DNA from: Mobula hypostoma | Lineage: Eukaryota | Length of the DNA: 64,000 nt | Assembly: GCF_963921235.1 (NCBI RefSeq) | Contig: NC_086097.1 | Span: 30,568,001 to 30,632,000, forward strand | Reading direction: 5' to 3' | Shown here: in pieces, positions 3,413 through 52,914 of the stretch | Numbering within the stretch: position 1 is the first letter of the stretch | Layout of the letters: each line of letters starts with the position of its first letter | The notes under the pieces: model-generated | Seen by the model: only the letters and a program-made list of their open reading frames with translations | What the model was told of the DNA's origin: nothing | Databases searched by the model: none | Translations under genes and position numbers: made by a program

Positions 3413-4329
3413 CAGTTGGCCCTCCTTATCCACGAGGGATTGGTTCCGGGACGCCTCACGGATACCAAAGAACGTGGATGCTCAAGTCCCTTATTCAACC
3501 TGTCTCACTACGGTGGACCTTATTTAACCTGTTTTAGTGCGGTGGGCATTAGGACCCGGCAGCGGAGCTCTGAATCCGCAGTGTTTCTGTTCACAAAAAT
3601 AATCATGATCGCAATTTAAAATAAAATGGAAATAATAAAGCGATCAGAAAGAGGTGAAACGCCATCGGTCATTGGAAAAGCATTAGGCAACAGTCCGTCA
3701 ACAATCCGAACAATTTTAAAGGATAAAATGAGAAAGGCCCTGCCCAGTTAAAGCTAGAATTATTACTAAGCAACGCAGTGGTTTAATTATTGGGTTTTGG
3801 GTTTTTGATCCTTCACATCAACCCAGCAGGGATGAAGTGCGCACTCGGGAGCGATCTGTCACTGGATCAAACTCGGGAACGATCTGTCACTGGTTCGAAC
3901 TCGGGAACTTCCATTCCCGAGTCTGGCGCTGAAACATACGTTTCTTAAGTATTTTATATGCATAGAAAGTATATAGTATATATTTTACCTAAGACAAACA
4001 TTTGACTAACTGACGCTAAATAATACCGGATGTACCTGTTCCGACTTACTTAGTAAGAGAACTTCCGTTTTCTTTCGATCCCAATCCACGATAACCTACG
4101 CAACATCCTCCTGTATACTTTAAATCATCTCTAGATTACTTATAATACCTAATACAATGTAAATGCTATGTAAATAGTTGTTATATCGCATTGTTTAGGG
4201 AATAATGACAAGAAAAAAAAATCTGTACAGGCTTGAACAGCAAGTGCTGGATGAGCACTTCCGGGTTTTCTCAATTCGCAGTTGGTTGAATTCGCGCAAG
4301 CGGAACTCGCGGCTAAGGAAGGCCAACTG
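3413..4329 (+). mobile_element. TcMar-Tigger non-autonomous element (MER2-like) with transposase HTH remnant
   Basis: TA target duplications at 3411-3412 and 4330-4331. TIRs CAGTTGGCCCTCCTTATCC / GGCTAAGGAAGGCCAACTG. 3626-3727 encodes MEIIKRSERGETPSVIGKALGNSPSTIRTILKDK (pogo/Tigger N-terminal HTH). It splits a CR1 3' end. Confidence 0.9.
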
Positions 4330-5256: not shown

Positions 5257-6339
5257 TGGGTCCGAGGTGACCAAATATCATATCCAAGTTAGCTGACAAT
5301 ACAAAATTAGGTAGGATTGTGAATAGGAAAAGACAAGTAGAGGCTTCAAGGGGATATAGATAAGCTGAATGAGGAGGAAAGAACATTGCAGACAGAATTG
5401 ATTTTAGAATATCATTGTCACCTATACTGGTTTACAGTGAAAAGTTCTTTCTTTGTGTGCCATCCAGACAGATCACATCATACCATACACAAAGTAGTAA
5501 AAAGAAAACAATAAAGTAGTGCAGCCAGACAAAGCACAAGGTTCATGATGAGGTGAATCGGGAAATCAAGAGTTCATCTTTCAGCAGTTCAAGTACAGAA
5601 GCGAGTGTATAGATGCTGGAAATCCAGAGAAATAAACAAAAAAAATCCAGAACGAACTCAGCAAATCAGGCAGTGGAATAAACAGTCAACATTTCGAGCT
5701 GAGACCCTTGATCAGATCTGTTCAAGTTTCTGATAACAGCAGAACAGAAGCTGTTCTTAAGCCTGGTAGGAAAATTAACATCCTACTTTGGGGCACAAAA
5801 TAGAAAAGCAATATTTCTTCAAATAGCGAGAGATCGTTAAATGCTGATGTTTAAAAGGAACCCAGATGCCCTTGGATGCAAGTCACTGAAATGCAGCAAA
5901 CAGTTAGAATGTTGGTGTTTCATGTAGAAGGATTGGAGTACAGAGTAAATACTGCAATTACATACAGGGCCTGGATGAGAGTGCACCTGGTGTATTGTAC
6001 AGTTTTACTGTTTCTTACAATAAAAAGGATACACTTACTATCAATAGACAGCAGTGAGAATTCATTAGACTGGCTCCTGGGATGGCAGGTATGTCATACA
6101 AGGCGACGTTGAGTTTTCAATCTCTGTATTCTCCAGAAATTAGAAGATCTCATTGAAGCTTACAAAAATTCTCACAAGACTCAGCAAAGGGGAAGCAGGG
6201 AGGATGGCAGGATGGCATACCTTGGCAAGATCCTCCAAAGCCAGGTAGTACAGAGAAAGAGGGATCAGAACTAGGCAAATTAGGATTATTGATAAGAAAG
6301 CTTTTCACTCAAGGGGGAGCTGATTCTTTGCAATTCTCT

Positions 6340-7006
6340 TTCTTTTTAAATCTTTTTATTGAATAAGTATACAAAAAGGTAAGCCATATAAACATTAATA
6401 CAATGTTAAAATATAATAAAATTACAGAAGGTATCAATACCAAAAAAGAATACTACAAACAATGTAATTTAAACATAAGAAACCAAGATAACATAATAGT
6501 ATACTAAATTTTATATATATATATATCAATAGAAAAAAAGAAAAAAAAACCCACCGTGCAACTAACTAAAAGCAAAGCAAAGCAAAGCAATGGGCTAACT
6601 TGAAACCAAACAGAGTTAAACTTAAAATCACGTCCTCAATCCCGACCTCCATTAAAAACAGTGAAGAAAAAACAAGGGTATATATTACATTAAATGAAAA
6701 TATCGAATAAAAGATCCCCAAGTCTGTTCAAATTTAAATGAAGAATCATAAAGGTTACTTCTAATTTTCTCCAGATTCAAACATAATATCGTCTGAGAGA
6801 ACCAAAAAAAGGTAGTTGGAGCATTAAGCTCTTTCCAATGTTGTAAAATACATCTTTTCGCCATTAAAGTAAGAAATGCAATCATTCTACGGGCTGAAGG
6901 GGAAAGATTACTAGAAATTTTAGGTAGTCCAAAGATAGCAGTAATAGGGTGAGGAGAGATATCTATATTTAATACCTTAGAAATAATATTAAAAATGTCT
7001 CTCCAA
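6340..7006 (-). mobile_element. Young 5'-truncated fish-type L1 (ORF2 C-terminus and 3' UTR), copy 1
   Basis: Open frame WRDIFNIISKVL...AKRCILQHWK...LNLEKIR...WGSFIRYF; AATAAA and A-rich tail; 17-bp TSD attctttgcaattctct at 6323-6339 and 7007-7023. Confidence 0.9.
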
Positions 7007-7654
7007 ATTCTTTGCAATTCTCTACCCTGAAAAGTTGTGGAGACCAAGTTATTGAGCTCATTCTATAGGAACACCCCATCAACTCTCCCTTCAGCCTATG
7101 ATGCTTTAGAGAACCCAATGACTAACATGAGGAGCCATAATTTTAAAATGATTGGAGGAAAGTTTGGGGAGGGGAGAGAAGGGATGTCAAAGTTGTGTTT
7201 TTTTATATAAATACATTTTAGAACATGCTGCCAGAGGTGATGGTAGAGGCAGATACAATTGAGGCATATAAGAAACTCAGACAGGTACATGGGTGACAGT
7301 AACAATGGAGGGCTATGTTGGAGGGTTGGGTTAGATTGTATTTAGAATTAGTTAAAAACTCAGCTCAACATGATGTGCTGAAGAGCCTGCACTGTGCTGT
7401 ACTGTTCTACGTTCTAGAGCTCGATGGTTTCTAGATTAAGGAAAATAAGGGAGGAGGGATAGTGCAGGAAAATAGTGCCAGTGATCTTGATGAACAGAGA
7501 AAGAGGTTCCAAAGGTCAAATGTTTAACTCATTTGCTGAATTCTTACATTTGTGTTTGTGTCCTTTTTTAAAATCTATGCAGGGTAGCAATGATGTATTT
7601 AAGAGGATCAATCATTATCCAAACAAGGATTAGAGGCATCATGGGCAATGAGTG

Positions 7655-7990
7655 GGCAGCACAGCACAGTGATTAGCACAATCACTTTATAGCACCAGCG
7701 ATCACCGATTGGGGTTCATTTCCCGCCACTGTGAGGAGTTTGTACTGCGGCCGCACGGGTTGCTTCCGGGTGTTCTGGTATCCTTCCACATTTATATGGT
7801 TATGTTGCAAAAACATACGGGTTAGGATAAGTAAGTTTTGGACAGGCTACGTGGGTGCTGGAAGCATGGCAAAAACTTGCAGCCTGCTCCCAGTACATCT
7901 TCTGACTGTGTGGTTGTCGACACAAACAAGGCATTTCACTGTAAATTTCGATGCGCAAGTCACAAATAAAGCTAATCTTTAAAGCTAATC
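7655..7990 (+). mobile_element. V-SINE (tRNA-like head, V domain, Rex/Babar-like tail)
   Basis: Core gaggagtttgtac...gggttgcttccgggtgttctggt...ccaca and tail catttcactgta...acaaataaagctaatcttt. Many further copies occur in the window. Confidence 0.7.
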
Positions 7991-10826
7991 CTTTAAAATT
8001 ATCTGCCATGGCTTTCCAGTTTAATTCACTCAGTCATATACAAAAACAATTAAATTAAATTCAGTGAAACAATCTGCCTAAGGAACTTAAACAGGACAAG
8101 CAGCATCGGTGGGAGAAGAAACTGTCAATGTTTCAAGTCAAAACCATGCATCAATAATTAAATTCACTGCAGAGATTTCAAGTGATGGACAAACATTTGG
8201 TGGGGTGTAAGGAGAACTCCTTCCCCCAACACAATTAGCAATGACAATTTGCTACTCTGCTTACAAGAGTGAAGCAAACCGTAAAACACAAGAAAACAGA
8301 AGTAGGCCAGTAAGCCCATCGAGCCTAGCTTGCCATTCAAAACAATACGAAGACAAGAAGCAACATGATAGAGGTAGACAAGATTATGAGGGGGATAAAT
8401 TGAGTGGACAACCAGCAACATTTTGCCAGGGCACAAATAGCTAAAATGTTTTGGATGAGTGGAGAAAAGTTTAGAGGAGATGTCAGATAGTTCTCACCGC
8501 AACCCCCCCCCCCCCAAAAACACAAAGATAGTGGCAAGTGCCTCGAATGCACTGCCAACAATGGTGGTAGAGCCATTAGGGGCATTTAGGGCACCTGAAT
8601 GAAAGAAAAATCAAGAGCAAGAGGCTATGTAGAAGGAAAGTGTTACATTGATCTGAGAGTAGGTTAAAAGGTCGGTACAATATCGAAGGGTGAAAGGTCC
8701 CATAATATTATGTGATTTATCTTCTTTTCTGTGATTCATGGCTGATCAGCCCCAGGATTCAACCCTGCTACCTGTGCCAGTAACCCATAGCTCACTTTTA
8801 AAACGTTATACTTCCATGATCTAGCCTCCTGGGAAATAGAGTTTCAGGGATTCAACACCATCCACCCCCCATCAAGGAGCATTTCCTTGACTTCTTAGTT
8901 TAAAACAATCACCCCTCCCCCTTCCCTAATAATATAGCTCCTCATTTGATGGTCTCCCACGAGTTGCTCACAGGGCTATCAAAAAGAAACGACAGAAATG
9001 TAAACAGCAAGTAACTTTCCATGCCAAAGAGAATAGGACCAACAAGCAATGTTATACAAAATTTATGAGGGGTGCAGATGAGGCAAATACAGCAGATTGA
9101 GATAGACTAGAACTAAAGGTCACAGGTTAAGGGTGAAATCAGAAACGCTTAAGGGGAATTTTTTCACTAAGGTAATGCAAGTGTGGAATGAGCTGTCAGT
9201 GAAGTGATGGATGTGAGATTGATTTCAATATTAGAGCAAAGTTTGGGCAAGTACATGGATGGGAGGATTATGGAGGACTGTAATCCAGGTATGGGTCAAT
9301 AGGACTAGGGAGAATACAGTCTGACATGGACTAGATGGGCCAAACGGCCCATTTCTGTGCTGTAGTGCTATATATCTACGTCCATTTTGCAGAGGCAGTA
9401 GACTCAAAACAAGCCAAAAAGCTTTCTCCTGTATCATTACAATTCTGCCATTTGTTTATTTTTGATACAAATCAGCCAGGTATAAAACTCCATGGAGCAT
9501 TGTGTTCCTTCCAGTCACCCTCCCAACTGAACTCCTTGACTCGTATCCCACTGCACTAATACATGTAGATAGCGAGTCTGTGCATGAACAGCAAACATAA
9601 AAGCACAAACAATGAAACATGAACAAAGAACCAAGAACATTTCTGCCCTGCTATGTGCACAAATTTTTCTTCAAGAAAATCCCACTGCGAGTATCCTAAA
9701 GCTACAATAGTCTAGCACGTTAAAAACTTAACACTTAAATGTTGCCGGAAGAGTGGGATGCAGCATACAAGACACACAACTACAATATTCCCAGAGAACT
9801 GTGGAATTGTGCAGAACCAAAGTAAGACATGGAATATCGAACAGTACAGCACAGGAACAGGCCCTTTGGCCTCATCAGCGCCAACTGAATTAATCCCATT
9901 GCCACAGACGGCTGTTGAAGCCAGGTCATTGTGTATACTTGAAGTGGAGGTTGATAAGTTCTTGATTAGTAAGGACATTAAAGGTTACGGGGAGAAGGCA
10001 GAAGGATGGGGTTGAGAAGGATAATAAATTGAATGATAGCAATTGATGATCAAATGCCAGAGCACACTCGATGGGCCAAATGGCCTAATTCTGCTCCTGT
10101 CTTATGGCGTTCAATTCCTGCCGCTGTCTGTGGGAGTTAGTACATTCTCTGTGACCATGTGGATTTCTTCTGGATGCTCTGGTTTCTTCACACTTTCCAA
10201 AGATGTATGGTTAGGGTTTGTCAGTTGTGGGCATGCTATGTTGACATCAGAAGCACATTGAGACTTGCAGGAAGCACAAGCAGCATAATACTTGCTGATT
10301 TAATTTGACACAAATGATACATTTCACCAAGTTTCAATGTAGATTTGACAAATAAAACTAATCTCCCTCTTTAAATTATGAAAAGGTCAGTTGGACCGGT
10401 ACATTGGTTAGAAAGGTTTAGAATATTATAGTCCAAACACCAGCAAATGGGACAAGCCTGTATGGGGCATTTTGGTCACTATGGACCAGTTTCCGAGATG
10501 TACAACTCTAATGCTACCCAATCTCTTGAATACTTCTATAATTTTGTTTTTAATACAGATTTCTAACATTGGCAGATTTTTGCTTTTCAAAAGCTGTCCA
10601 TGTTGCTTTACCTATAGTCAGCCCAGTACAAACATTCAAATTTGCAGCAAATTCTACTTGGGAATGCTCCAATGGAGCACCTGGAATGTGTTCTAAATAC
10701 AAGTGCAAGGAAAACTGATGATTCAGTCATCACAATATCACTGTCTTCACAAAAACTAGCTGCTACTTAACAGTGTCCACATTTCAACAGTAGAAAAAGA
10801 TTATGAGACATATAAAACTATACATA

Positions 10827-14015: not shown

Positions 14016-15283
14016 TAATTCATTGGGATTGCCCAAGGTTATGAAAGACTATTGAAATGCAAGTCGTTTTGGACCTCCTCAAATTCAACTGGCTGAAGCT
14101 GCAAATAACACTCATCCTCCCGTTTTTACAGCGCAAAATAACAATGTGCCTTGCTGCAGAGTTACAACAAACCAGGGAATATTTCAATTTAACAATTTTT
14201 AGCTGGCATAAAAGGAAGCTACATTTCCACACAAGTCTGGCAATGTCTCATGTCAAGTTACAGTATTACTTGTTCAAATTTACTGATGTTTAAAAACACG
14301 ACTGGCCTCAGGCTATGCAAAACACATTGGTGAAAGGATTACCCGTTGAAAAAGCAGCTGGTTTAAATGTGCAGGCAAGATTACGACACTGTAACTGACG
14401 CTTGAGTGAACATCAGAGCTGTAAACTCAGCCCTTCAGCCCACCACATCAACTCTGACACCACATTAATTCCATTTACATATGTCAGCTGCATGGCCATT
14501 TACACATTGGCAATTCAGCTATTTGTTTAAATTCTTAAATGTTGTAAAAGTCTCTGCCTCCAACAGGCAGTATGCTCCACGCAATACAGTCCTTTCTTAT
14601 TCTTCCTACGTTCTCATCAGCTTCCCCACACCCTCAAATCCTACCCCAAACCTACAAACGAGGGGTCACTTTCAGCAGACAATCAATCTAACAACTTGCA
14701 CATCTTTCAGATGTGGGCTGAAACCCACACAGTCACAGGAAGAGCATGCAAACTCCACACGGACAGCATTGGAGCTTAGAAATGAACCCAGGCTGCCAGA
14801 GCTGTGGCAACTGCTCTATGAGCTACTCCATTTTTGTCCAAGGCTGACTACAACATTGGGTACAATGCTACTACAGTACAATAAAACTGTGTACTCCATT
14901 ATTAAGGATCCCCGGTACCCAGGGCATGCCCTTTTCTCAGTAGTTATCGACAGAGGAATTCATCTGCCAAGTCTGGGGTGTCCAGGGAGGGATGGCACTT
15001 CTGGTTAAGTGCCTTGTCATGTCCATCCTGGGGCAGCTCACTCACCTTTGGTTCCCACTTGACACTCAGCTCTCACCTGTGACTCCAAGTAGCTGTTTGT
15101 ATGCGACAACAGCCACATCCCAGTACACCATTTCAACAGGTAGGCTAAACTAGGTGAGGGTAGCCAGAAGGCCTCATACCCCGACAGAATTGAGACGTGC
15201 CTGTCCTAGCATATGAAGTCAGCAACACACATCAAAGTTGCTGGTGAACGCAGCAGGCCAGGCAGCATCTCTAGGAAGAGGTA

Positions 15284-15321
15284 CAGTCGACGTTTCAGGC
15301 CGAGACCCTTCGTCAGGACTA
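15284..15321 (-). ncRNA. Minimal type I hammerhead ribozyme motif (inverted copy, sense to Jagged pre-mRNA)
   Basis: Exact reverse complement of 15362-15399. Confidence 0.7.
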
Positions 15322-15361
15322 ACTGAAGAAAGAGCTAGTAAGAGATTACTAGATCTTCAGT

Positions 15362-15399
15362 TAGTCCTGACGAAGGGTCTCGGCCTGAAACGTCGACTG
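15362..15399 (+). ncRNA. Minimal type I hammerhead ribozyme motif
   Basis: UAGUC-CUGACGA-AGG(GUCUCGG)CCU-GAAA-CGUC-GACUG: conserved core boxes CUGANGA and GAAA, stem II AGG/CCU, palindromic ACGU in place of stem III, GUC cleavage triplet (after 15394), stem I UAGUC/GACUG. Confidence 0.72.
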
Positions 15400-15804
15400 T
15401 ACCTCTTCCTAGAGATGCTGCCTGGCCTGCGTCGACTGTACCTCTTCCTAGAGATGCTGCCTGGCCTGCTGCGTTCACCAGCAACTGTGATGTGTGTTGC
15501 TTGAATTTCCAGCACCTGCAGAATCCCTCGTGTTTGCATATGAAGTCAGCTCTGGTTCGACTGGGCGAACAGTGAGATCCAACAGCCAAAGTGGCAGAAC
15601 TGCAACACTTCATGGAGAGAAAAGGCATGATAAGGCAGATAAAAAGTTATGGTTATCCACTGTAACAAAGGATGACGACTACTCATACCACTGGATCTGG
15701 ATTTCTGAGGTTGAGAGGGTGAAACTGTCCCAGTGCAATAGCTTTTCCACTTTAACTCTCACACAGGTTTCACTGTCATCGTTGGATATGACAGACAACC
15801 AACA

Positions 15805-16371
15805 TGCTGTAGTTTTCTGATTGACTGTAAGTGAAAAGTATTACATACTTACTGCAAATAATAGACTGCCTTTATACAGTGCTCTCGACAATTGCATCCT
15901 CCAAATCTTCATTTTCATTATGACATTCAAGGTGATTAGCAATACCTTCAGATCTTCGTAGGTCCTAACCTGAAGTATTGACAATTGTTTCATTTTCACT
16001 CAGCTGCTTCTGCCATCTCCAAGTCTGAATGGTTGAAACCACTGAACAAAATAATTCTAAATGGTCTTGCTACTTATTTCTCGCCAACTATCAGACACAA
16101 AAATCACAGCTTTTTGAACAAACACAAACAACACGATTTAAAAGCTGTTTGCTCTAAGCATAGCACAATGTCTAATGGCTATACAGGTTCATGCAACTGA
16201 TGCTAGTTCGAAACAGTTCAGCAAGTCTCTTGTTCCAACTATGCAGCATAGTGTCCCAAATAAACAAATGGAGTCCCAGCTATTTTCTCGATTTGTTTTT
16301 GTTCTTTGAGAGTGGTCCCAAATAAGTGGCTGCCCCTATTAACCAATGGACCAATTAACCAGAATCCACTG
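15805..16371 (-). mobile_element. Probable Tigger/pogo-derived DNA transposon fragment
   Basis: Ends in aattaaccagaatccactgt (CAGTGGATTC.GGTTAATTGG-type TIR); minus-strand acidic remnant LECHNENEDLEDAIVE; left TIR not found. Confidence 0.45.
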
Positions 16372-24349: not shown

Positions 24350-26615
24350 AATACATCCAGGTACACGGCAGGATAGTGTGAGCTGAATGCAGAGTAAAGC
24401 TCCCCTACATTGCCCCTGGTCTGGGAACGTGCAATAGGACAACAATAGAGAGAGTGGGTGAGGAGAGGGCTGTTAATAGTGGAAGTCTTTGACCAGAGAG
24501 CACAGCTCAGAATACAGGGACATCCTTTAAAACAGAGATGAGGAGTAATTTTTTTTTTTAGTCAGAGGGTGGGTGAATCTGTGGAATTCATTGCCACAGG
24601 CAGTTGTAGAGGCCAAGTCATTGGGTATATCTAAAGTGGAGATTGACAGATTCTTGATTAGTAAGGGTATCAAAGGTTATGGAGAGAAGGCAGGAGAATG
24701 GGGTTGAGAGGGATAATAAATCAACTAATCGAATGGCAGAGGAGACTCGATGGCTAAATGGCCTAATTCTGCTCCTGTCTTATGGTTAAACACAGTAAAG
24801 CTCCCTTCACCTATTTTCAGCGAGTACTGCCTCTTTGTGCCTCTCCCTGCGCTTTCTCTGGACCACTGCAGAATATAGAACGTAGAACAGTGTAGTACAG
24901 TACAGGCCCTTCAGTCCATGCTTATTTTATTATTTAAAGATAGTGCTGACCAGCCCCTTCCAGCACAATGAGCAGAGTTACCTAGCAACCCACCTATTTA
25001 ACCCAAGCCTAATCACAGGACAATTTACAATGACCAACCAACCCGCCTTTGGACTGTGGAAGGAAATTGGAACACCTAGAGGAAACCCATGGTCATGGGA
25101 AGAACATACAAACTTCCTTACAAAGGACTGGAATTGAACTCCAAACTCCGACACCCTGAACTGTAATAATGTCGTGGTAACCGTTACACTACCATGCCGA
25201 CTTTTTAAATCTACTCCAATATCAATCTAACCCTTCCTTCCCATGTAGCCCTCCATTTTTGTTTCATCAATGTGCCTATCCAAGAGTTTCTTGAATGTCC
25301 CAAATGTATCTGCCTGTACCACCACCCTTGGCAGCATGTACCACTATATTTTGAGTTCTACTTTCCTTTTCACAACTTCAGCATACTTGTGTATGGAACA
25401 ATCTGTCTGAATGGAACACAACTAGAAGCTTTTCACTGTTCTTGGTACACTCACACACAGAAGCAACACAGATTAGACAAACTCCTACTACCCAGTCTTT
25501 TCACAATCCCAGTGCTGGGACATTATGGTTTAGAGATAAAGATCAAGTAATTATCACACACACACACACACACAAATGGTGGAGGAACACCGGTCAGGTA
25601 GTATTCACTGCGAGGAGCTGAGACCCTTCAGCAGTCCTGAGGTGTCACAGCCTGAAACATCGACTATTTATTCCTCTCCAAACAAGTTGCCTGACCAGCT
25701 GAATTTTTCAAGCATTGTGTGCTACGTTACTCTGGATTTCCAGTATCTGCAGAATCTCGTGTGTGTAAACTAAAGTGATTAGAATCAGAATCAGATGTAA
25801 TATCACCAGCATATGTCATAAAATTTGCTAACTTTTAGCAGCAGTACAATGCAATACATGATAATTATATAGAAAAGAAAAAACTGAGTTACCTTAAAAA
25901 TATGTTTATTAAATAGTTAAATTAAAATAAGTAGTGCAAAATAACAAAAATAATAAAAATATGAGGTAGTATTCATGGGTTCAATGACCATTTAGAAATC
26001 CGATGGTGGGGTGGGGGTGGGGGAAGAGAAGCTGTTCCTGAATTGCTGAGTGTGTGCCTTCAGGCTTTTGTACCTCCTTGCTGATGGTAAGCATGAAGAG
26101 GGCATTGTCTGGGTGGTGGGGATCCTTAATGATGGATGCCACTTTCCTAAGGCACTGCTCCTTTAGCTTTAGTTTGTCACATGAATAACCGAAACATACA
26201 GTGATACACATTGTATGTATCTACTCAAATCAGTGAGGATCGTGCAAGCATCTCCATGCTTCTAGCACCAGCATAGTATGCCCACAACTCACTAACCCTA
26301 ACACGTATGTCTTAGGTATGTAGGAGGAAACCAGAGCACCCAGAGAAAACTCATGTGGTCACAGGGAAAATGTACAAACTCCTTACAAACAGTGGCAGAA
26401 GTCAAACCCTGATCAATGATCACTGAGTTTACCACTACACTACGGTGCATGGTAAAGCTCCCTCAACACTGCCCCATCACATTCCCAAGGCAGAGACAGC
26501 ACAGATTAGATACCAAACAGATCTCCTAAATACTGTACATCATCCCATCAATCTCTCCCAGGGCAGATGCACCACAGGTTAGATACAGAGTAAAGCATTT
26601 TTTTTACACTGCCAC
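24350..26615 (+). repeat. Decayed ~60-bp minisatellite relic interrupted by retroelements
   Basis: Recurring unit like cccagggcag..acagcac.ggttagatacagagtaaagctccc...cactg.cccatca at about 24355-24425, 24790-24810, 25455-25540 and 26450-26615. Confidence 0.5.
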
Positions 26616-27107: not shown

Positions 27108-27810
27108 CAAGGATCAAAACCCATGGCACACTGCGTTATGACCAAGCCTCAACATCCAAGCCTCACACCATTCTAATTTAAACTCAAGAAATTCTGTACA
27201 TGCTGGGAAACACATGAAGCACTGGAGGAATTCAGCAGGTCAGGCAGCATCTATGGAAGAGAATAAATAACTGACACTTCGGGCCAAGACCCTTTATCAC
27301 TACTTGCAATCGTATCTTTGTTCTTTCACTTTCGCTGGGCTAAAACCCTGAACTCCTTCCCTAACAGCACTGTGGGTGTACTCACACAAGTGATGCAGAG
27401 GCTCAAGAGGACAGATCACCACCACCTTGAATTAGTCATGCTATCTTCATTAGTGCTTGTTACTAGCCATCAAAGTCAAGTTTGTCAAACATGCATAAAG
27501 TACTCCTGCAAGCCACCCATCATCCTGACTTGCAAATATATCGCCGTTCCTTCACCATCGACAGTTCAAAATCAAGGAACTCCCTCCCTAACAGCATTTC
27601 GGTATATCTGCACCTCAACTATTACAGTGGCTCAAGGGCAACAAACCATTCTAGTTAACCACCCCAAACCCCTGTATTACCCACAGTCACTTCACCATAC
27701 TGTAAGCGATATCTCATAATGCTGTATACATTATAAATGCATGGTATTGTGTATACTTCATTTCATATCTGTACTTTAACCTACAAGTTTATTTTTCTGT
27801 AATTCTTTAT

Positions 27811-34070: not shown

Positions 34071-37000
34071 TTTAATACGAAGATTTATTTGTCAAATGTA
34101 CATCAAAACATACGATGAAATGCATCATTTATGAAAACGACCAACAGTCCAAGGATGTACTGGGCAGTCGGCAAGTGTCGCCATGCTTCCAGTGCCAATA
34201 TAGCATGCCCACAACAAACCAACCCTAACTGATCCATCTGTCTTTAGGATGTGGGGAGGAAACCAGAGCCCCCAGAGGAAACTCACGATCACGGGCAAAA
34301 TGTACAAATTCCTTAGGCAGTGGCAGAATTGAACCGAGGCCACTGGCACAGTAATAGTGTTATACTAATCATTATTCTATTGTGCCACCACACAGTAGCC
34401 TACCATGGTTCATGGTAACTACCTATTCTGCTAATCTTACACAAGTGTTCTCCCCACATTCTCAACAGCTCCCGCGGACATTAGGAAAATTCAGTGACCA
34501 AATTAGCCCTGTATGTAAAAATCTGTATGCCTTCTGCTGTTGGAAGAAATTAGACTACCTGGAGAAAATCCACATTGCCACAGGGAAAACGTGAGGCAAG
34601 GAATTAACCTATAGTTTCTAGCCCCATTCTACTGGCTAAGCACCATGTCTCTTGCAAATAAAATTCTTTGCACCTCACTGCTAGAGTATGCTCACACAGG
34701 CAACTTTGGGTTACTTGCCACAGTGTATTCCTGACAAACCTAGACTTCACATGCATTGATAATATACTCTCTGAACAACCTGTAATTATCCAGATCTCAC
34801 TTCCTTACACCTACTGATCATTTCCCAATGTCAACACAATATAACCCTTCCCCCACATAGCCCTTTTTTTTTCTTTCATCCATGTGTCTATCTAAGAGTC
34901 TCTTAAATGTTCCTAATGCATCTACCTTTACCACCACCGCTGGTAGCGTGTTCCATACATCTACCATTCTCCGTGTGAAAAACCTACCTTTGACATCCCT
35001 CCTCCAATCACCTTAAAATTATGCCCCCTCATATTAGTCATTTCTGTCCTGGGAGGAAATCTCTGGTTTTCCACTCAATCTATGCCCCTGGTACACATCT
35101 TTCAGATCACCTCTCATCTTTTTCACAAAGAGAAAAGCCTTAGCTCATTCAACGAATCATCGTAAGACCTGCTCTCTAATCTTCTCTGCACCCTTTCTAA
35201 AGCTTCCACATCCTTCCTATATTGAGGCCACAAGAGCTGAATACAATACTCCAAGCATGGTCTAACCAAAGTTTTATAAAACCTACAACTCTACAAAACA
35301 TGTGGACAAGTGGCCAAAAAGTTTGGACAAAGCAATAGAATTTGAGAAGGATAGAAAGCTGGAAATGCTCTTGACAGGAATGACATAAGGTGGTAACCAG
35401 AATGGTGTGGTGCAGTGGTGCAAAGACCCAGGTTCACTCTGATCTCTGGAGCTGTTAACATGAAACTGCACATTCTGTTTCCCCTAGCTATACCAGTTTC
35501 TTCCCGCATCCCAGAGCTGTGTAGACTGGTAGGTTCATTTGTGGTAGGTTAAATGAACCTGAACATTGTGAGCTGCCCCCAGCACATCCTTGGCTTGCGT
35601 CGGTTGTTAACACAATCAACACATTTCACTGTATGTTTCAACATACTGTACATGGGATAAATAAACTTTAACTCACTATAAGTTACCCGGTGTGTGAATA
35701 AGTGGTAGAATCTTGGGGTGAGTTAATGGGAATGTGGAGGGTACAAAACGGGATTGTCATCAGGGTGGTGCCAATGGGTTCTTGATGGTCAGTGTGGACC
35801 TAGTTGGTCATTGGTCCCATTTCCATGTTGTATGACCAAGTTGATTAGGGAAAAGTACAAGGGGGATTTTAACTGTAAAGTTTCCCATCCCACCCACAGA
35901 GTGCTGGGTGTGTGGAGCACTCTGCCAGTGGTGTCAGAGGCTGATACATTAGGGACATTTAAGAGATTCTCAGACAGGGACATTGATGATAGAATAATGA
36001 ACGGCTACGTAGGAGGGAAGGGTTAGATTAACCTACTTCAAGATCAAAGGGTTGGCACTTCATCCTGTTGCCAAAGTGTTTGAACTTGCTGTAATGTTCC
36101 AAAGACCTTCTAAAGACTAAAGTACTGGTGGCAAAAGGGGTTTAACCCGAACCTCGTGTCTATTTTATTACATGACTTTTGGCTCGGTAAATGCTGCAAT
36201 GCAATTGTGTCTTGGTTTTACCTCCATGACATTATAGTACCAAATCACGATTATATAGAGAAAAGTTAGTTGTCCAGAACCTCAACATTCAGTCCAAAGT
36301 AATGTCCCACAGCATGACTACTACAGAGAGAAGGTATTCAACAGATAGGGATGTACTCTGTTCCTCAGCCAGCTGTCATTAATTTGACATGCCCTTCTTC
36401 CCAGCACCCATTGCACAGTACGGATATTAAGCCATTCTGCAATGTTGGGGGAAAGAGGCCAAAAAAACAGACAAGAATCTTGGAGAATGAGATAATTTTA
36501 ACCATACGTTTTCTATAAATCAACAAAACCAATATATATCATACACAATAAGTGTATCTCCATTCAACATAATCACTTCCTGCACTCAGTTGTACTAGCA
36601 GCCTCCACATTCTCTAACCAACCCTGCACACAACCAAAACCACATTTATAAGCACAAGATATTCTGCAGATGCTTAAAATCCAGAGTAACACACACAAAA
36701 TGCTGGCGGAACTCAGTAGGTCAGGCAACATCTATAGAGGGGAACAAACAGTCGACATTGAGCCGAGACCGTTCATCAGAACTGGGAAGGAAGGGAACAC
36801 AAGCTGGAATAAGGTGGGAGAAGGGAAGTAGTACAGATGGCACAACACAACAAAGCTTGATGTGGATGGGCTGCAACAGCAGACCACACTGTAGACCACT
36901 CATGTACCTAATAAAATGACCACTGTGTATATTACCATGAACTATCTCAAGATTAATTTTCTTGCCAGCATTCACAGGAAGAAATACAACAGAATTTTAC

Positions 37001-47400: not shown

Positions 47401-48392
47401 ATTACAGGCCAGTGGGTCAAACATCAGTGAAATTTTTGGTAGAATTGTAAGGGACAAAATTAATCTGCACTTGGAGAGGCAAGAATTGATCAGGATACTC
47501 AGTGTGCTTTCGTAGCAGTAGGGGTGTTGTGATGAAGTTGTATAGACGTTGGTGAGGCCTAATTTAGCGTATACTGTGCAGTTCAGCTCACTAACCTACA
47601 GGAAAAACAAGTAAGTTTAAAAAAGTAGGAAGAAAAGATTCACAAGGATGTTACCAAGAGTTAGGAGAAGGTTGAATAGATTAGGACTTTACTTCCTAGA
47701 GTGTAAGAGAATGAGGGGAGATTTGATAGAGGTATACAAAACTATGAGTATAGCCAGGGTAAATATCAGCAGAATTTTTCCACTGAGGTTGGGTGACACT
47801 AGAGGTCAAGGGTTAAGGGTGAAAGGTGAAATGTTTAAGTGGAACACGAGGGGGAATTTCTTCAGAGGGTGGTGACAGCAGAAGTGGTAACATTATTCTC
47901 CATTTCCTTTTAGCTGTCTCTTTGATTCTCCATCACCACCATTTATTTATTGTATTTTCATCAAAACAGTGAAATGCATAGCAAAATAGTGACTAACGCT
48001 ATAAAATTAGGAGTCAATTCCTGCTGTCTGTATGGAGAGCATACGTTCTTCCATGGTCACATGGGTTTCCTCCAGGTGCTCCAATTTCTTTCTATATCCC
48101 AAAGACACAAGGGGTTGGGTTGGCGCCAGAAGCATAGTAACATAGCATGCCCAGCACAGTTCTCGCAAATAAGATTTTCCACAGATGACACATTTCACTG
48201 TACATGTGACAAATAAAGCCAATCTAATTTCTCAATCTCTTAACCCAATGATGTGCTGGGGTAGACAGCAAGAGTCATCATACATTCTGGTGCCAAAACA
48301 GCATTCCCACAATGTTCAGCAGAACAAGGAACTATAAAAGCAAAAGTAAAACAACCCCTTTCCCACCCCCTCACAAACAAGCCTTCAACCCT

Positions 48393-48468
48393 GGCCTGCT
48401 GCGTTCACCGGCTACTTTGATGTGTGTTGCTTGAATTTCCAGCATCTGCAGAATTCCTGTTGTTTGCG
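48393..48468 (+). mobile_element. Short 5'-truncated copy of the Penelope-like element
   Basis: Matches 15463-15537; 9-bp TSD ttcaaccct at 48384-48392 and 48469-48477. Confidence 0.75.
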
Positions 48469-48974
48469 TTCAACCCTTTGCAACTGCTTTTGCTTCCCCT
48501 CCAGTGCCCACCACACAAACACAGATCTTACTTTTTCCCCTTCCCTCAACTATTCCCAAGCCAATGAATGAGACTAACTTTGTTGAAAGAACTCCATTTG
48601 GATAAATTCTATGGAGAGAGGAACAAACTACACGCTGGAAGAACTCCACAGGTCACGCAGCATCTCAACAGATCCCTCATCCCGAAATGTCAACTGTCTA
48701 TTCCTCTCCACAGATGCTGTCTGACCTACTGAGCACTTCCAGCCTTTTGTGTATGTTGCACAAAAGTTCCAGCATCTGCAGAATCTCATGTTTATGGAAC
48801 ACTTTGAGAATGTGCACTTTTGTTATAAAACTGTTGGAATTTACGCCTTTCAGATGAGATGTTAAATTAGGACCTAATTTTCCCCACAGGGATGCAAACA
48901 ATCTCACAGCTTTTTTGCAAGAAATGTGGGATCTCTCTGTATACTGCTGAGAGCCAAATTTCTTTAGTCAATCT

Positions 48975-50612: not shown

Positions 50613-52914
50613 CATCACTAAGCTTCAAAGGCCTGTAAATTGCTTTGGGATCTGAGGTAGTGTATGAATTCAGTTTTGTTCTGGGCCATACAGTAACTGG
50701 ACATTGAAACATAGGTGGCATTGTGATGTAGTAGTTAAAACAACACTTTACCATAAGACCATTACAGTGACAGTGATCTGGGCTTAACTCCACTGCTGTC
50801 TGTAAGGAGTTTGTACATTCTCTCTGTGGCTGTGTAGGTTTCCTCAGAGTACGGCAGTTTCCATCCACATCCCAGAAACATACAGGTTAGGATTAGCAAG
50901 CTGTGGGCACGTGTGACAATTCAATATAATTTTTAAATCACAGCACCATGGACTGAATAGACTGAAGGATATGAGAGAGGGTGCATGTGTGTGTGTCTAA
51001 GGTGTAGGAAGCCACATCGTAGACAGCGTGGTTGGACTATAAAAAGGGGCTCTATTAAAAGGATCAGGCCAGTCCACTAAAAGGAACTATATTCTGTTCT
51101 AATTATATCACCAATATATACAGATCATCAAACCGCAGCATGGAGATAAAAGTATTGGCAGGGCCTGGTGTTGACAATCTCAATGTATGTGTAACACACT
51201 TTGGCCGGAATGTAACCCCGAGGTCCAAGATATCATGGAGGGCTGAAGGAAAAGTCCCTACTTTGCATCACTCAACCAATGCCCAACTCATATTGGATGC
51301 AAGAAACTTGGTGTTCAAAGTATTTGCCATGTGATTAATCATTCTTCAAGATGACAAACCATCCATTTTGCTGGAGGAACTCAGTAGATCAGGCAGCATT
51401 TATGGGAGGGAATACCAGTTGATGTTTCAGGCTGTGACCCTTCATCAAAGTGTGCAAAGAGCACAAAGGGCAAAGAAAAGTGTTGCAATGAGACATAACA
51501 CTCACCTGCTTTTTTAAAAATATATATTTCATTACAATCTCAAGCTTCCAAACTACTGTAAGAGTCAATGGAAAATGAATGAAATTATGTCAATATTGTC
51601 TCGTCCAGGGACACTTGAGATCTATAGTAACTAAGCTGTCACGAGTGTTATTTATGCCTTAGCAGCACTGTCAGGTCAAATTAAAAAAATTATCGGTTTG
51701 AGGCTCACTCCAGACTCTGCAACAGAAGCCAGCTTCTGGAATACTAATGTCAATGCCACTTCTCCATTGAGATACTGAGCCAATGCTCTGCTGCTTAATT
51801 ACAAAAGATCCCATTTTCAAGTGAGAAATCCCACCAACTACCCTAGCCCACGTTTATTAATATTAATTTCAAGACTGTACTGCAACTCAGTGGTGTAGGG
51901 GTTAGCATAACGCTTTACAGTGCTGACTGCAAGATCGGAGTTCAAATCCCGGTGCAGTCTGTAAGGGGTTTGTACATTCATCCTATGAATGCGTGGAGTT
52001 CCTCCAACATTCCAAAACATACCAGTTAGGGTTCACGAGTTTATGGACACGCTATGTTGACAATGAAAGCGTAGCGACGCTTGAGGTCTGCTCAGGATAA
52101 TCCTGATTTGATGCAAAGGATACATTTCATTGCATGTTTCAATAAACAGGACAAATAAAACTCATTTTTATTTGTGGGAAATGAGTGCAAATCCTAAATT
52201 ATAACAGCAACATTTACTGCAAAGGGAGCTTCACTGACCCTAAAATACACCAAAACATGAGAAGTGTAGTGGAAATCTTTAATTCCAACCTGGATCAGCC
52301 ATGAATGCTCCCACAAAGAATCCAGTATATTTCAATGTTTCAAGTGTCCTGCTCCTACTCTCCCTTCTCTCTCCTTCTGACCTGCCTAGTTCCTCCTACA
52401 CCCACCCTAATCACCATCATCCTGTTTCCTTCCTCCACCCCCGCCACCCACTTCATCTGCCCATCACCCACACACCCCCACTAGGACCCCCTCTACTATT
52501 CAGAGTGGAGCAGTCTCGTTTGCTATCGGACTTAACCAGACAAATCACTCCACCAATTAAGAACAGCCATGATGCACCACAAGCCACAGAATCAAGAAAG
52601 AGCTATCAACCTACTGTGTCATGGCTGGGTGAGGTCTCCCGTGTTGAGTCAAGTTAAGCCGCAAGCCCTACTCCTGGATGGCTGTGAAAACCAAATCATG
52701 GTTGGATATATTTGAAATGGTGGTTGATGGGTTCTTGATTAAAGACATCAAAGGTTACGGGAAGAAGATACGAGAATGGGGTTGAGAGGGATAATAAATC
52801 ATTCATGATGGAATGGAGGAGCAGACTTGATGGGCTAAACAACCTAATTCTGCTCCTTTGTCTTATGGTCTCTCTGAATTCCATGTTCCATCTTTCTCTC
52901 CCATCCACTTTCAT

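Follow-up and report, generated by a model that had tools for sequence, protein, structure and literature searches.

Minimal hammerhead ribozymes (min-HHRs) occur in both pseudo-long terminal repeats (pLTRs) of metazoan Penelope-like elements (PLEs), ~3.5 kb apart, and are also found as close dual motifs on opposite strands and mostly solo in truncated copies (Cervera & de la Peña 2014, PMC4209133). In that work, single min-HHRs showed no cleavage in vitro, dimers cleaved weakly, and the G10.1-C11.1 pair was highly conserved among min-HHRs. For PLEs in general, Craig et al. 2021 (PMC8557442) give as hallmarks extensive 5' truncation, a second 5'-truncated copy lying inverted beside the 5' end, and a tail of 30-40 bp that is often one-ended. 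The same work describes partial tandems that form pLTRs, with the hammerhead inside the pLTR, and a reverse transcriptase (RT) followed by a C-terminal GIY-YIG domain as the architecture of endonuclease-positive PLEs. An insertion reaction has been described for PAc, a Poseidon-clade PLE of Anolis carolinensis, whose protein cleaves and extends both target strands in vitro; its RT has two neighboring internal start sites, the sequence separating them makes up the optional 30-40 bp tail, core hammerhead mutants had no effect on insertion, and RNA ends did not accumulate at the cut site (Mob DNA 2024, PMC11167929). We analyzed a 64,000-nt stretch of the Mobula hypostoma genome (contig NC_086097.1, C1 in our numbering, positions 30568001-30632000; hereafter, the window, numbered from its first nucleotide) and found there a 312-bp insert, at 15224-15535, which is very probably the 5'-truncated, head-to-head double pLTR end of a ~3.5-kb PLE that likely arrived in one insertion, with RT primed from both nicked strands.

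The insert is bounded by exact 15-nt direct repeats (GCATATGAAGTCAGC), the two copies of a target-site duplication, which lie at 15209-15223 on the left and 15536-15550 on the right and are 100% identical. The last 2-3 nt of the left copy could equally belong to the inverted arm, whose alignment extends to 15221. Between the repeats, four segments follow one another: an inverted, 5'-truncated PLE pLTR 3' end on the minus strand (15224-15347; q15-141 in the coordinates of the 175-nt family reference end, 96% to family copy L016); a 7-nt arm centre, ACTAGAT (15348-15354); the same pLTR 3' end again, 5' truncated and in direct orientation, on the plus strand (15355-15501; family positions 34-141); and a 34-nt PLE tail, also on the plus strand (15502-15535). 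The inverted arm runs from family position ~141 down to 15 and has no tail; the tail is found at one end only. Complementarity between the arms is 100% over 77 nt (15253-15329 with 15354-15430) and 99% over 72 nt (15221-15292 with 15430-15501), and the centre together with its neighbors folds into a small tip hairpin, CTAGTAA-GAGA-TTACTAG. A perfect 39-nt tandem duplication (15391-15429 and 15430-15468) is confined to the right arm; it is the sole direct repeat inside the insert and does not include the hammerhead core.

Folded as RNA, the hairpin stretch as a whole reaches -249.9 kcal/mol, compared to -105.3 +/- 5.4 kcal/mol for 100 shuffles (z = -27), none of which was as good. The insert has an observed/expected CpG ratio of 0.62, compared to 0.26 across the whole window. 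The original prediction for this window had described a CpG-rich insertion of ~310 bp that forms a near-perfect hairpin with a hammerhead on each strand. The insertion, the hairpin, and the two-strand hammerhead are all borne out by the direct repeats, the inverted arms, and the motif scan described below, and the CpG enrichment is borne out as well. The size needed only to be made exact, and the near perfection of the hairpin holds for the arms; the last 34 nt lie outside it, and the 39-nt duplication has no counterpart in the left arm.

By similarity, the two arms correspond to the terminal 130-160 bases of a PLE of ~3.5 kb that is abundant in the genome. We searched the 3.48-Gb genome and scored 40 candidates per probe; the first look returned at least 1803 candidates for a 3'-end probe, at least 4388 for a probe from the middle of the open reading frame (ORF), and at least 2290 for a 5'-region probe. 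Copies of the family are 5' truncated at many different points, the shortest at 130 nt and the longest beyond 2.8 kb, and the longer ones extend back through the coding region. The 691-amino-acid (aa) ORF of copy L070 matched Pfam RVT_1 at residues 182-342 (E value of 7.5e-6, 26.2 bits) and GIY-YIG at residues 594-668 (E value of 6.5e-4). The ORF of L069 gave a GIY-YIG match of 22.6 bits, equal to the Pfam cut-off, and a more decayed copy, L043, also has RVT_1 and then GIY-YIG, in that order. In translation we see YIDD, the linker CKRNKCYTC (CX5CxxC) upstream of GIY-YIG, and LLYIGET..RF.EH.

The complete arrangement of the parent is seen in three copies, in which the ORF lies between direct pLTRs. 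The two pLTRs of a copy match each other at 99.4% (716 nt), 98.1% (530 nt), and 95.2% (746 nt). Each pLTR has one hammerhead, at 793 and at 4308, 4310, or 4397, such that the two are ~3.5-3.6 kb apart. The 175-nt end module with its hammerhead also lies ~578 nt upstream, in direct orientation, in 9 of 19 loci that were chosen by the 5' ORF region. ORFs of 758-784 aa, counted from an ATG, are still open in the copies examined. With pLTR pairs up to 99.4% identical and ORFs still open, this very abundant family looks recently active. The original prediction had linked the insert to PLEs and had looked to a genome search for a parent encoding RT and GIY-YIG; the arms are indeed the 3' pLTR end of such an element, and the parent is present as pLTR-ORF-pLTR with a hammerhead in each pLTR. 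The insert was also correctly called young, as its two flanking repeats agree at all 15 of their 15 positions, and its arms differ from the family column majority at only 2 of 127, 0 of 76, and 3 of 106 positions (~98-100% equal).

The upstream cut site in the parent lies ~140 nt before the first ATG that follows the tail. In two copies (L048, 881-3235; L068, 3-2354), the long frame reaches further upstream than the first post-tail ATG, crossing the tail without a stop and entering the pLTR. It has an ATG at L048 position 881, and the first post-tail ATG is thus a candidate start codon only.

In the alignments, copies of the family end at two discrete places 34 nt apart, ~141 and ~175. In eleven long copies that were selected through their ORF, which leaves the choice of 3' end unbiased, the end falls at q139-146 (seven copies), q175 (three copies), or q115 (one copy). 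The insert in the window displays both of the discrete ends: its inverted arm ends at ~141, its direct arm ends at 175, and its tail is the 34 nt between the two. In tandem/pLTR copies, these same 34 nt run directly into the 5' untranslated region (UTR) and the ORF. Head-to-head pairing is also common in the family, as 12 of 29 copies sampled by similarity to the right arm of the window have an inverted partner no more than 40 nt from their 5' end. None of these 12 partners has the tail, 5 of them end at 139-145, and the inner break points differ across all 12 pairs. The junction of the 39-nt duplication occurs only once in the genome. Because the centres differ and the duplication junction is unique, the palindrome was most likely built at insertion, with no palindromic master.

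A mirror image of the window arrangement was observed elsewhere in the genome. A 2.9-kb family copy (L045/L043, G000:C67:1774559-1783936, joined positions 5631-8521) lies inside a satellite array with a period of ~44-47 bp and is flanked by a duplication of ~13 bp (TCACCATACCATT). There, it is the 44-nt inverted piece at the 5' end that carries the tail, while the 3' end falls at ~141 and has none.

The route by which this structure probably formed is suggested by analogy with the Anolis PLE in vitro (PMC11167929). The endonuclease would nick the two target strands 15 bp apart, and each nick would prime a cDNA that RT begins at either of two internal positions in the RNA. The 34-nt tail would then correspond to the stretch between both start sites. 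Both cDNAs would abort after ~130-160 nt and be joined at a few bases of microhomology, yielding the palindrome. As in PAc, the hammerhead is positioned just upstream of or at the start of the ORF, and extension of both strands would give head-to-head products. In PAc, however, the hammerhead overlaps the start codon, whereas here the cut site precedes the first post-tail ATG by the distance given above. The clade is also likely to differ, because the CX5CxxC linker is of the Neptune/Nematis type. Nematis shares such a motif with Neptune (PMC8557442).

Two other origins were considered and rejected. Twin priming of the L1 type yields nonoverlapping parts of one RNA, and here the arms overlap in family coordinates (q15-141 and q34-175). 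A foldback or miniature inverted-repeat (MITE) DNA transposon does not fit arms that are a PLE 3' UTR, one end that is longer by 34 nt, and a duplication of 15 bp.

It is very unlikely that the insert belongs to a distinct, young, non-autonomous PLE derivative, similar to a retrozyme or a short interspersed element (SINE), that spreads as a palindromic ribozyme unit of ~310 bp with PLE enzymes supplied in trans. In favor of such a derivative, non-LTR retrozymes have been argued to be non-autonomous derivatives of PLE pLTRs (bioRxiv 10.64898/2026.07.22.740005), and short palindromic copies are frequent in our sample (12/29). The locus resembles the animal non-LTR retrozymes, the subject of this preprint and of Cervera & de la Peña 2020 (PMC7229834), in being short ORF-less DNA derived from a pLTR with type-I hammerheads of the PLE kind. 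However, a retrozyme consists of direct repeats in tandem, from which circular RNAs arise, whereas the locus is one inverted pair in which each strand has a single sense motif, and it has no independent unit. A spreading palindromic unit is also difficult to reconcile with inner break points that are different in all 12 palindromic copies and with a duplication junction that is unique in the genome. Moreover, the arms contain no sequence of their own, with 0-3 differences per arm from the majority of the autonomous pLTR. The proposal of the original prediction that this is a non-autonomous derivative is therefore not upheld, and the insert is better described as a 5'-truncated double copy of the end of an autonomous element.

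Similarly, we consider it very unlikely that a single cDNA folded back on itself, by snap-back or by a template switch onto the nascent strand, in place of two primed cDNAs. The 100% complementarity of the arms over 77 nt and the tight tip hairpin, CTAGTAA-GAGA-TTACTAG, are what a primer formed by fold-back would produce. However, everything in the first strand should then reappear in mirror image, and the tail and the 39-nt duplication are in the direct arm alone. In addition, the inverted arm stops at ~141, which is the alternative 3' end of the family (q139-146 in 7 of the 11 long copies), and the tail is absent from all 12 partners in the other pairs. These observations make a pure fold-back the poorer fit.

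The two hammerheads in the insert are minimal type-I motifs, one at 15362-15399 on the plus strand, with a predicted cut after 15394, and one at 15321-15284 on the minus strand, with C3 at 15316 and C17, the cut site, at 15289. The plus-strand string is UAGUC-CUGACGA-AGGGUCUCGGCCU-GAAA-CGUC-GACUG and is mirrored on the minus strand. Helix I (UAGUC/GACUG) has 5 bp, including one G·U; the core boxes are CUGACGA, which is followed by an unpaired A, and GAAA; and helix II (GGGU-CUCG-GCCU) has 3-4 bp. Positions 15.2/16.2 are CG, with the palindrome ACGU replacing helix III, and the cut falls after U16.1 C17. We scanned the 64-kb window with a descriptor of this architecture (CUGANGA, 0-1 extra nt, a helix II with 3 or more bp, GAAA, a palindrome of 0-6 nt, UH, and a helix I with 4 or more bp), and it matched these two sites only. 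Dinucleotide shuffles gave a mean of 0.005 matches, with any match in 1 of 200 shuffles and two matches in none.

A minimal type-I hammerhead with palindromic ACGU in place of helix III is what the original prediction had proposed, and this agrees with the published min-HHR (PMC4209133). The shared features are the CUGANGA and GAAA boxes, the GUC cut site, a 5-bp helix I, and a palindromic 15.2-16.2 (CG) with no real helix III. The motif differs in helix II, which has 4 bp (GGGU/GCCU, loop CUCG) in the window compared to 6-8 bp in several published families, and in its G10.1-C11.1 pair, which is a G·U in the window copy and in the recently active lineage.

Within the family, the window motif is letter-identical to the pLTR motifs of long copies, such as L048, L041, and L042. 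An A directly follows CUGACGA in all 56 family motifs, position 15.2 is C in 54 of them, and position 16.2 is G in 48. The core boxes and GAAACGUH are kept in 34 of the 56, and nearly every change affects a CpG site. At position 11.1, 35 motifs have U, 18 have C, 2 have A, and 1 has G, and the U11.1/A15.1 state seen in the window copy occurs in 12 of 13 motifs from the 5'-region set. As 11.1 is U in 12 of the 13 motifs of that set and the motifs of long copies are identical to the one in the window, the version in the window is that of the recently active lineage. For an analysis of covariation we used 54 of the 56 motifs (38 distinct), leaving out those of L014 and L040, which have deletions. 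In the proposed register, 94.7% of cells pair, compared to at most 45.3% in slid registers.

Several results count against parts of this account and should be weighed with it. With regard to the origin, the centre is not a clean join but is asymmetric by 6-7 nt, and a template switch or a later small deletion may have taken place there; priming on two strands is also carried over, by analogy, from a PLE of a different clade. With regard to the parent element, the RVT_1 match of 26.2 bits is below the curated Pfam cut-off of 29.6, the 691-aa ORF had no sequence match in the PDB at an E value of ≤1, and the CX5CxxC linker, a Neptune/Nematis-type motif, indicates the clade only tentatively. With regard to the hammerhead, the G·U at 10.1-11.1 replaces a pair that is highly conserved in min-HHRs. 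No two-sided change was found in any of the nine pairs across the 54 near-alike motifs, whose columns are on average 94% identical, and the observed pairing was equaled or exceeded in 201 of 500 shuffles. On these alignments, the family copies are too alike to test selection on pairing, and their variation is CpG decay. Furthermore, Rfam searches at an E value of ≤10 found no hammerhead family either in window positions 14500-16300 or in the family copies L016, L048, and L035, and the fold energy of the isolated motif is no better than that of shuffles (z of -0.7 and -1.4). The minimum-energy fold of the isolated motif keeps helices I and II, but it also pairs the GACG of the core with the CGUC of the cut site.

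The Rfam scans returned only generic miRNA-hairpin models, each under its gathering score. The hammerhead families in Rfam are type I, type III, HH9, HH10, and type II, and their models include helix III. The miss probably arises because the motif has no helix III.

The competing pairing of GACG (core G5-G8, allowed by N7 = C) with CGUC (15.2 to 17) was observed in window positions 15360-15401 and in L016 at 1470-1511. The resulting fold is rod-like and, in a monomer, would be in competition with the active core.

The hammerhead is a passenger sequence of the pLTR. In the parent element, it would cleave long or tandem transcripts at a point upstream of the ORF, and it is predicted to act only as a dimer, because its helix III consists of the palindrome ACGU alone. 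In the window copy, each transcript strand has one sense and one antisense motif. Because these motifs would be locked in a perfect duplex of ~125 bp, the window copy is predicted from the fold to be catalytically inert, with no cleavage.

The surroundings of the insert were established by searching the genome with Pfam DSL and MNNL. A DSL exon at C1:30537817-30537951 and an MNNL exon at C1:30692421-30692726, both on the minus strand and ~155 kb apart, bracket the window (C1:30568001-30632000). The best solved relative of the DSL exon is Jagged-1 (E value of 3.7e-38), ahead of Jagged-2. No Notch-ligand exon was found inside the window with a Cys-rich ORF filter and a local ORF listing. If both exons belong to one gene, the window is probably all intron of a Jagged-like gene, in which case the insert would be intronic and its minus-strand motif sense to the gene. 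This is in line with the Jagged context, and with the sense orientation of the minus copy, given in the original prediction.

We weighed possible consequences of such a position for the gene in two forms. In the first, the insert would be the natural footprint of two-strand, two-start-site, target-primed RT by a Neptune-like PLE, and its hammerhead or duplex would in addition affect the RNA of the Jagged-like gene by cleavage, editing, or small RNAs; we regard this combination as very unlikely. The second, in which the insert is a host-exapted intronic element whose sense hammerhead cuts the Jagged-like pre-mRNA or whose ~125-bp hairpin feeds small-RNA or editing pathways, can draw on a minus-strand motif that is sense to a gene with flanking MNNL and DSL exons and on a hairpin that is extremely stable, but it is extremely improbable for one of thousands of copies that is near the family majority, hence young, and for which conservation cannot be shown, given also that single min-HHRs had no detectable cleavage in vitro (PMC4209133), that the hairpin would be expected to sequester the motif, and that a search of sequencing runs for the family listed no RNA-recorded run, only contigs of uncertain type.

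Taken together, the locus is ordinary: it is a very short, recent example of a standard PLE insertion that carries a known min-HHR. Compared to the general PLE architecture (PMC8557442), we found no difference, and the locus is an extreme, very short case of it. Alone, it has little weight, being one more truncated copy of a kind that has been in print since 2014. The head-to-head stumps with one-sided tails and the two discrete ends are, however, in vivo data that fit a model of two start sites and both strands, the basis of which is a single in vitro system from a different clade. This model, and the role of the hammerhead in PLEs, could be put to a second test in the present family. This value is modest, and the family that offers it is very abundant and apparently recently active.

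The window also contains six further fragments of the 3' module, with the hammerhead region and the conserved tail end, detected by similarity to the reference. Three are on the plus strand (25639-25764, 48390-48465, and 48676-48785) and three are on the minus strand (27228-27304, 36650-36783, and 51360-51447); one is 92% identical to the reference, and the other five are 65-74% identical. In the older of these fragments the hammerhead letters are the same, eroded at CpG sites, and the sequence upstream of CUGA is different. Ten older, diverged relatives of the module, compared by eye, likewise depart from these letters by CpG decay only, and their upstream strands of helix I are too decayed to score. 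That older fragments share the module and differ upstream of CUGA indicates that several PLE lineages share the end module. Elsewhere in the genome, and unrelated to the finding in the window, a tandem array with a period of 67 bp and 96-99% identity between units (L038/L046, G000:C63, reverse-complement joined positions 1-935) lies ~5.4 kb upstream of a PLE copy.

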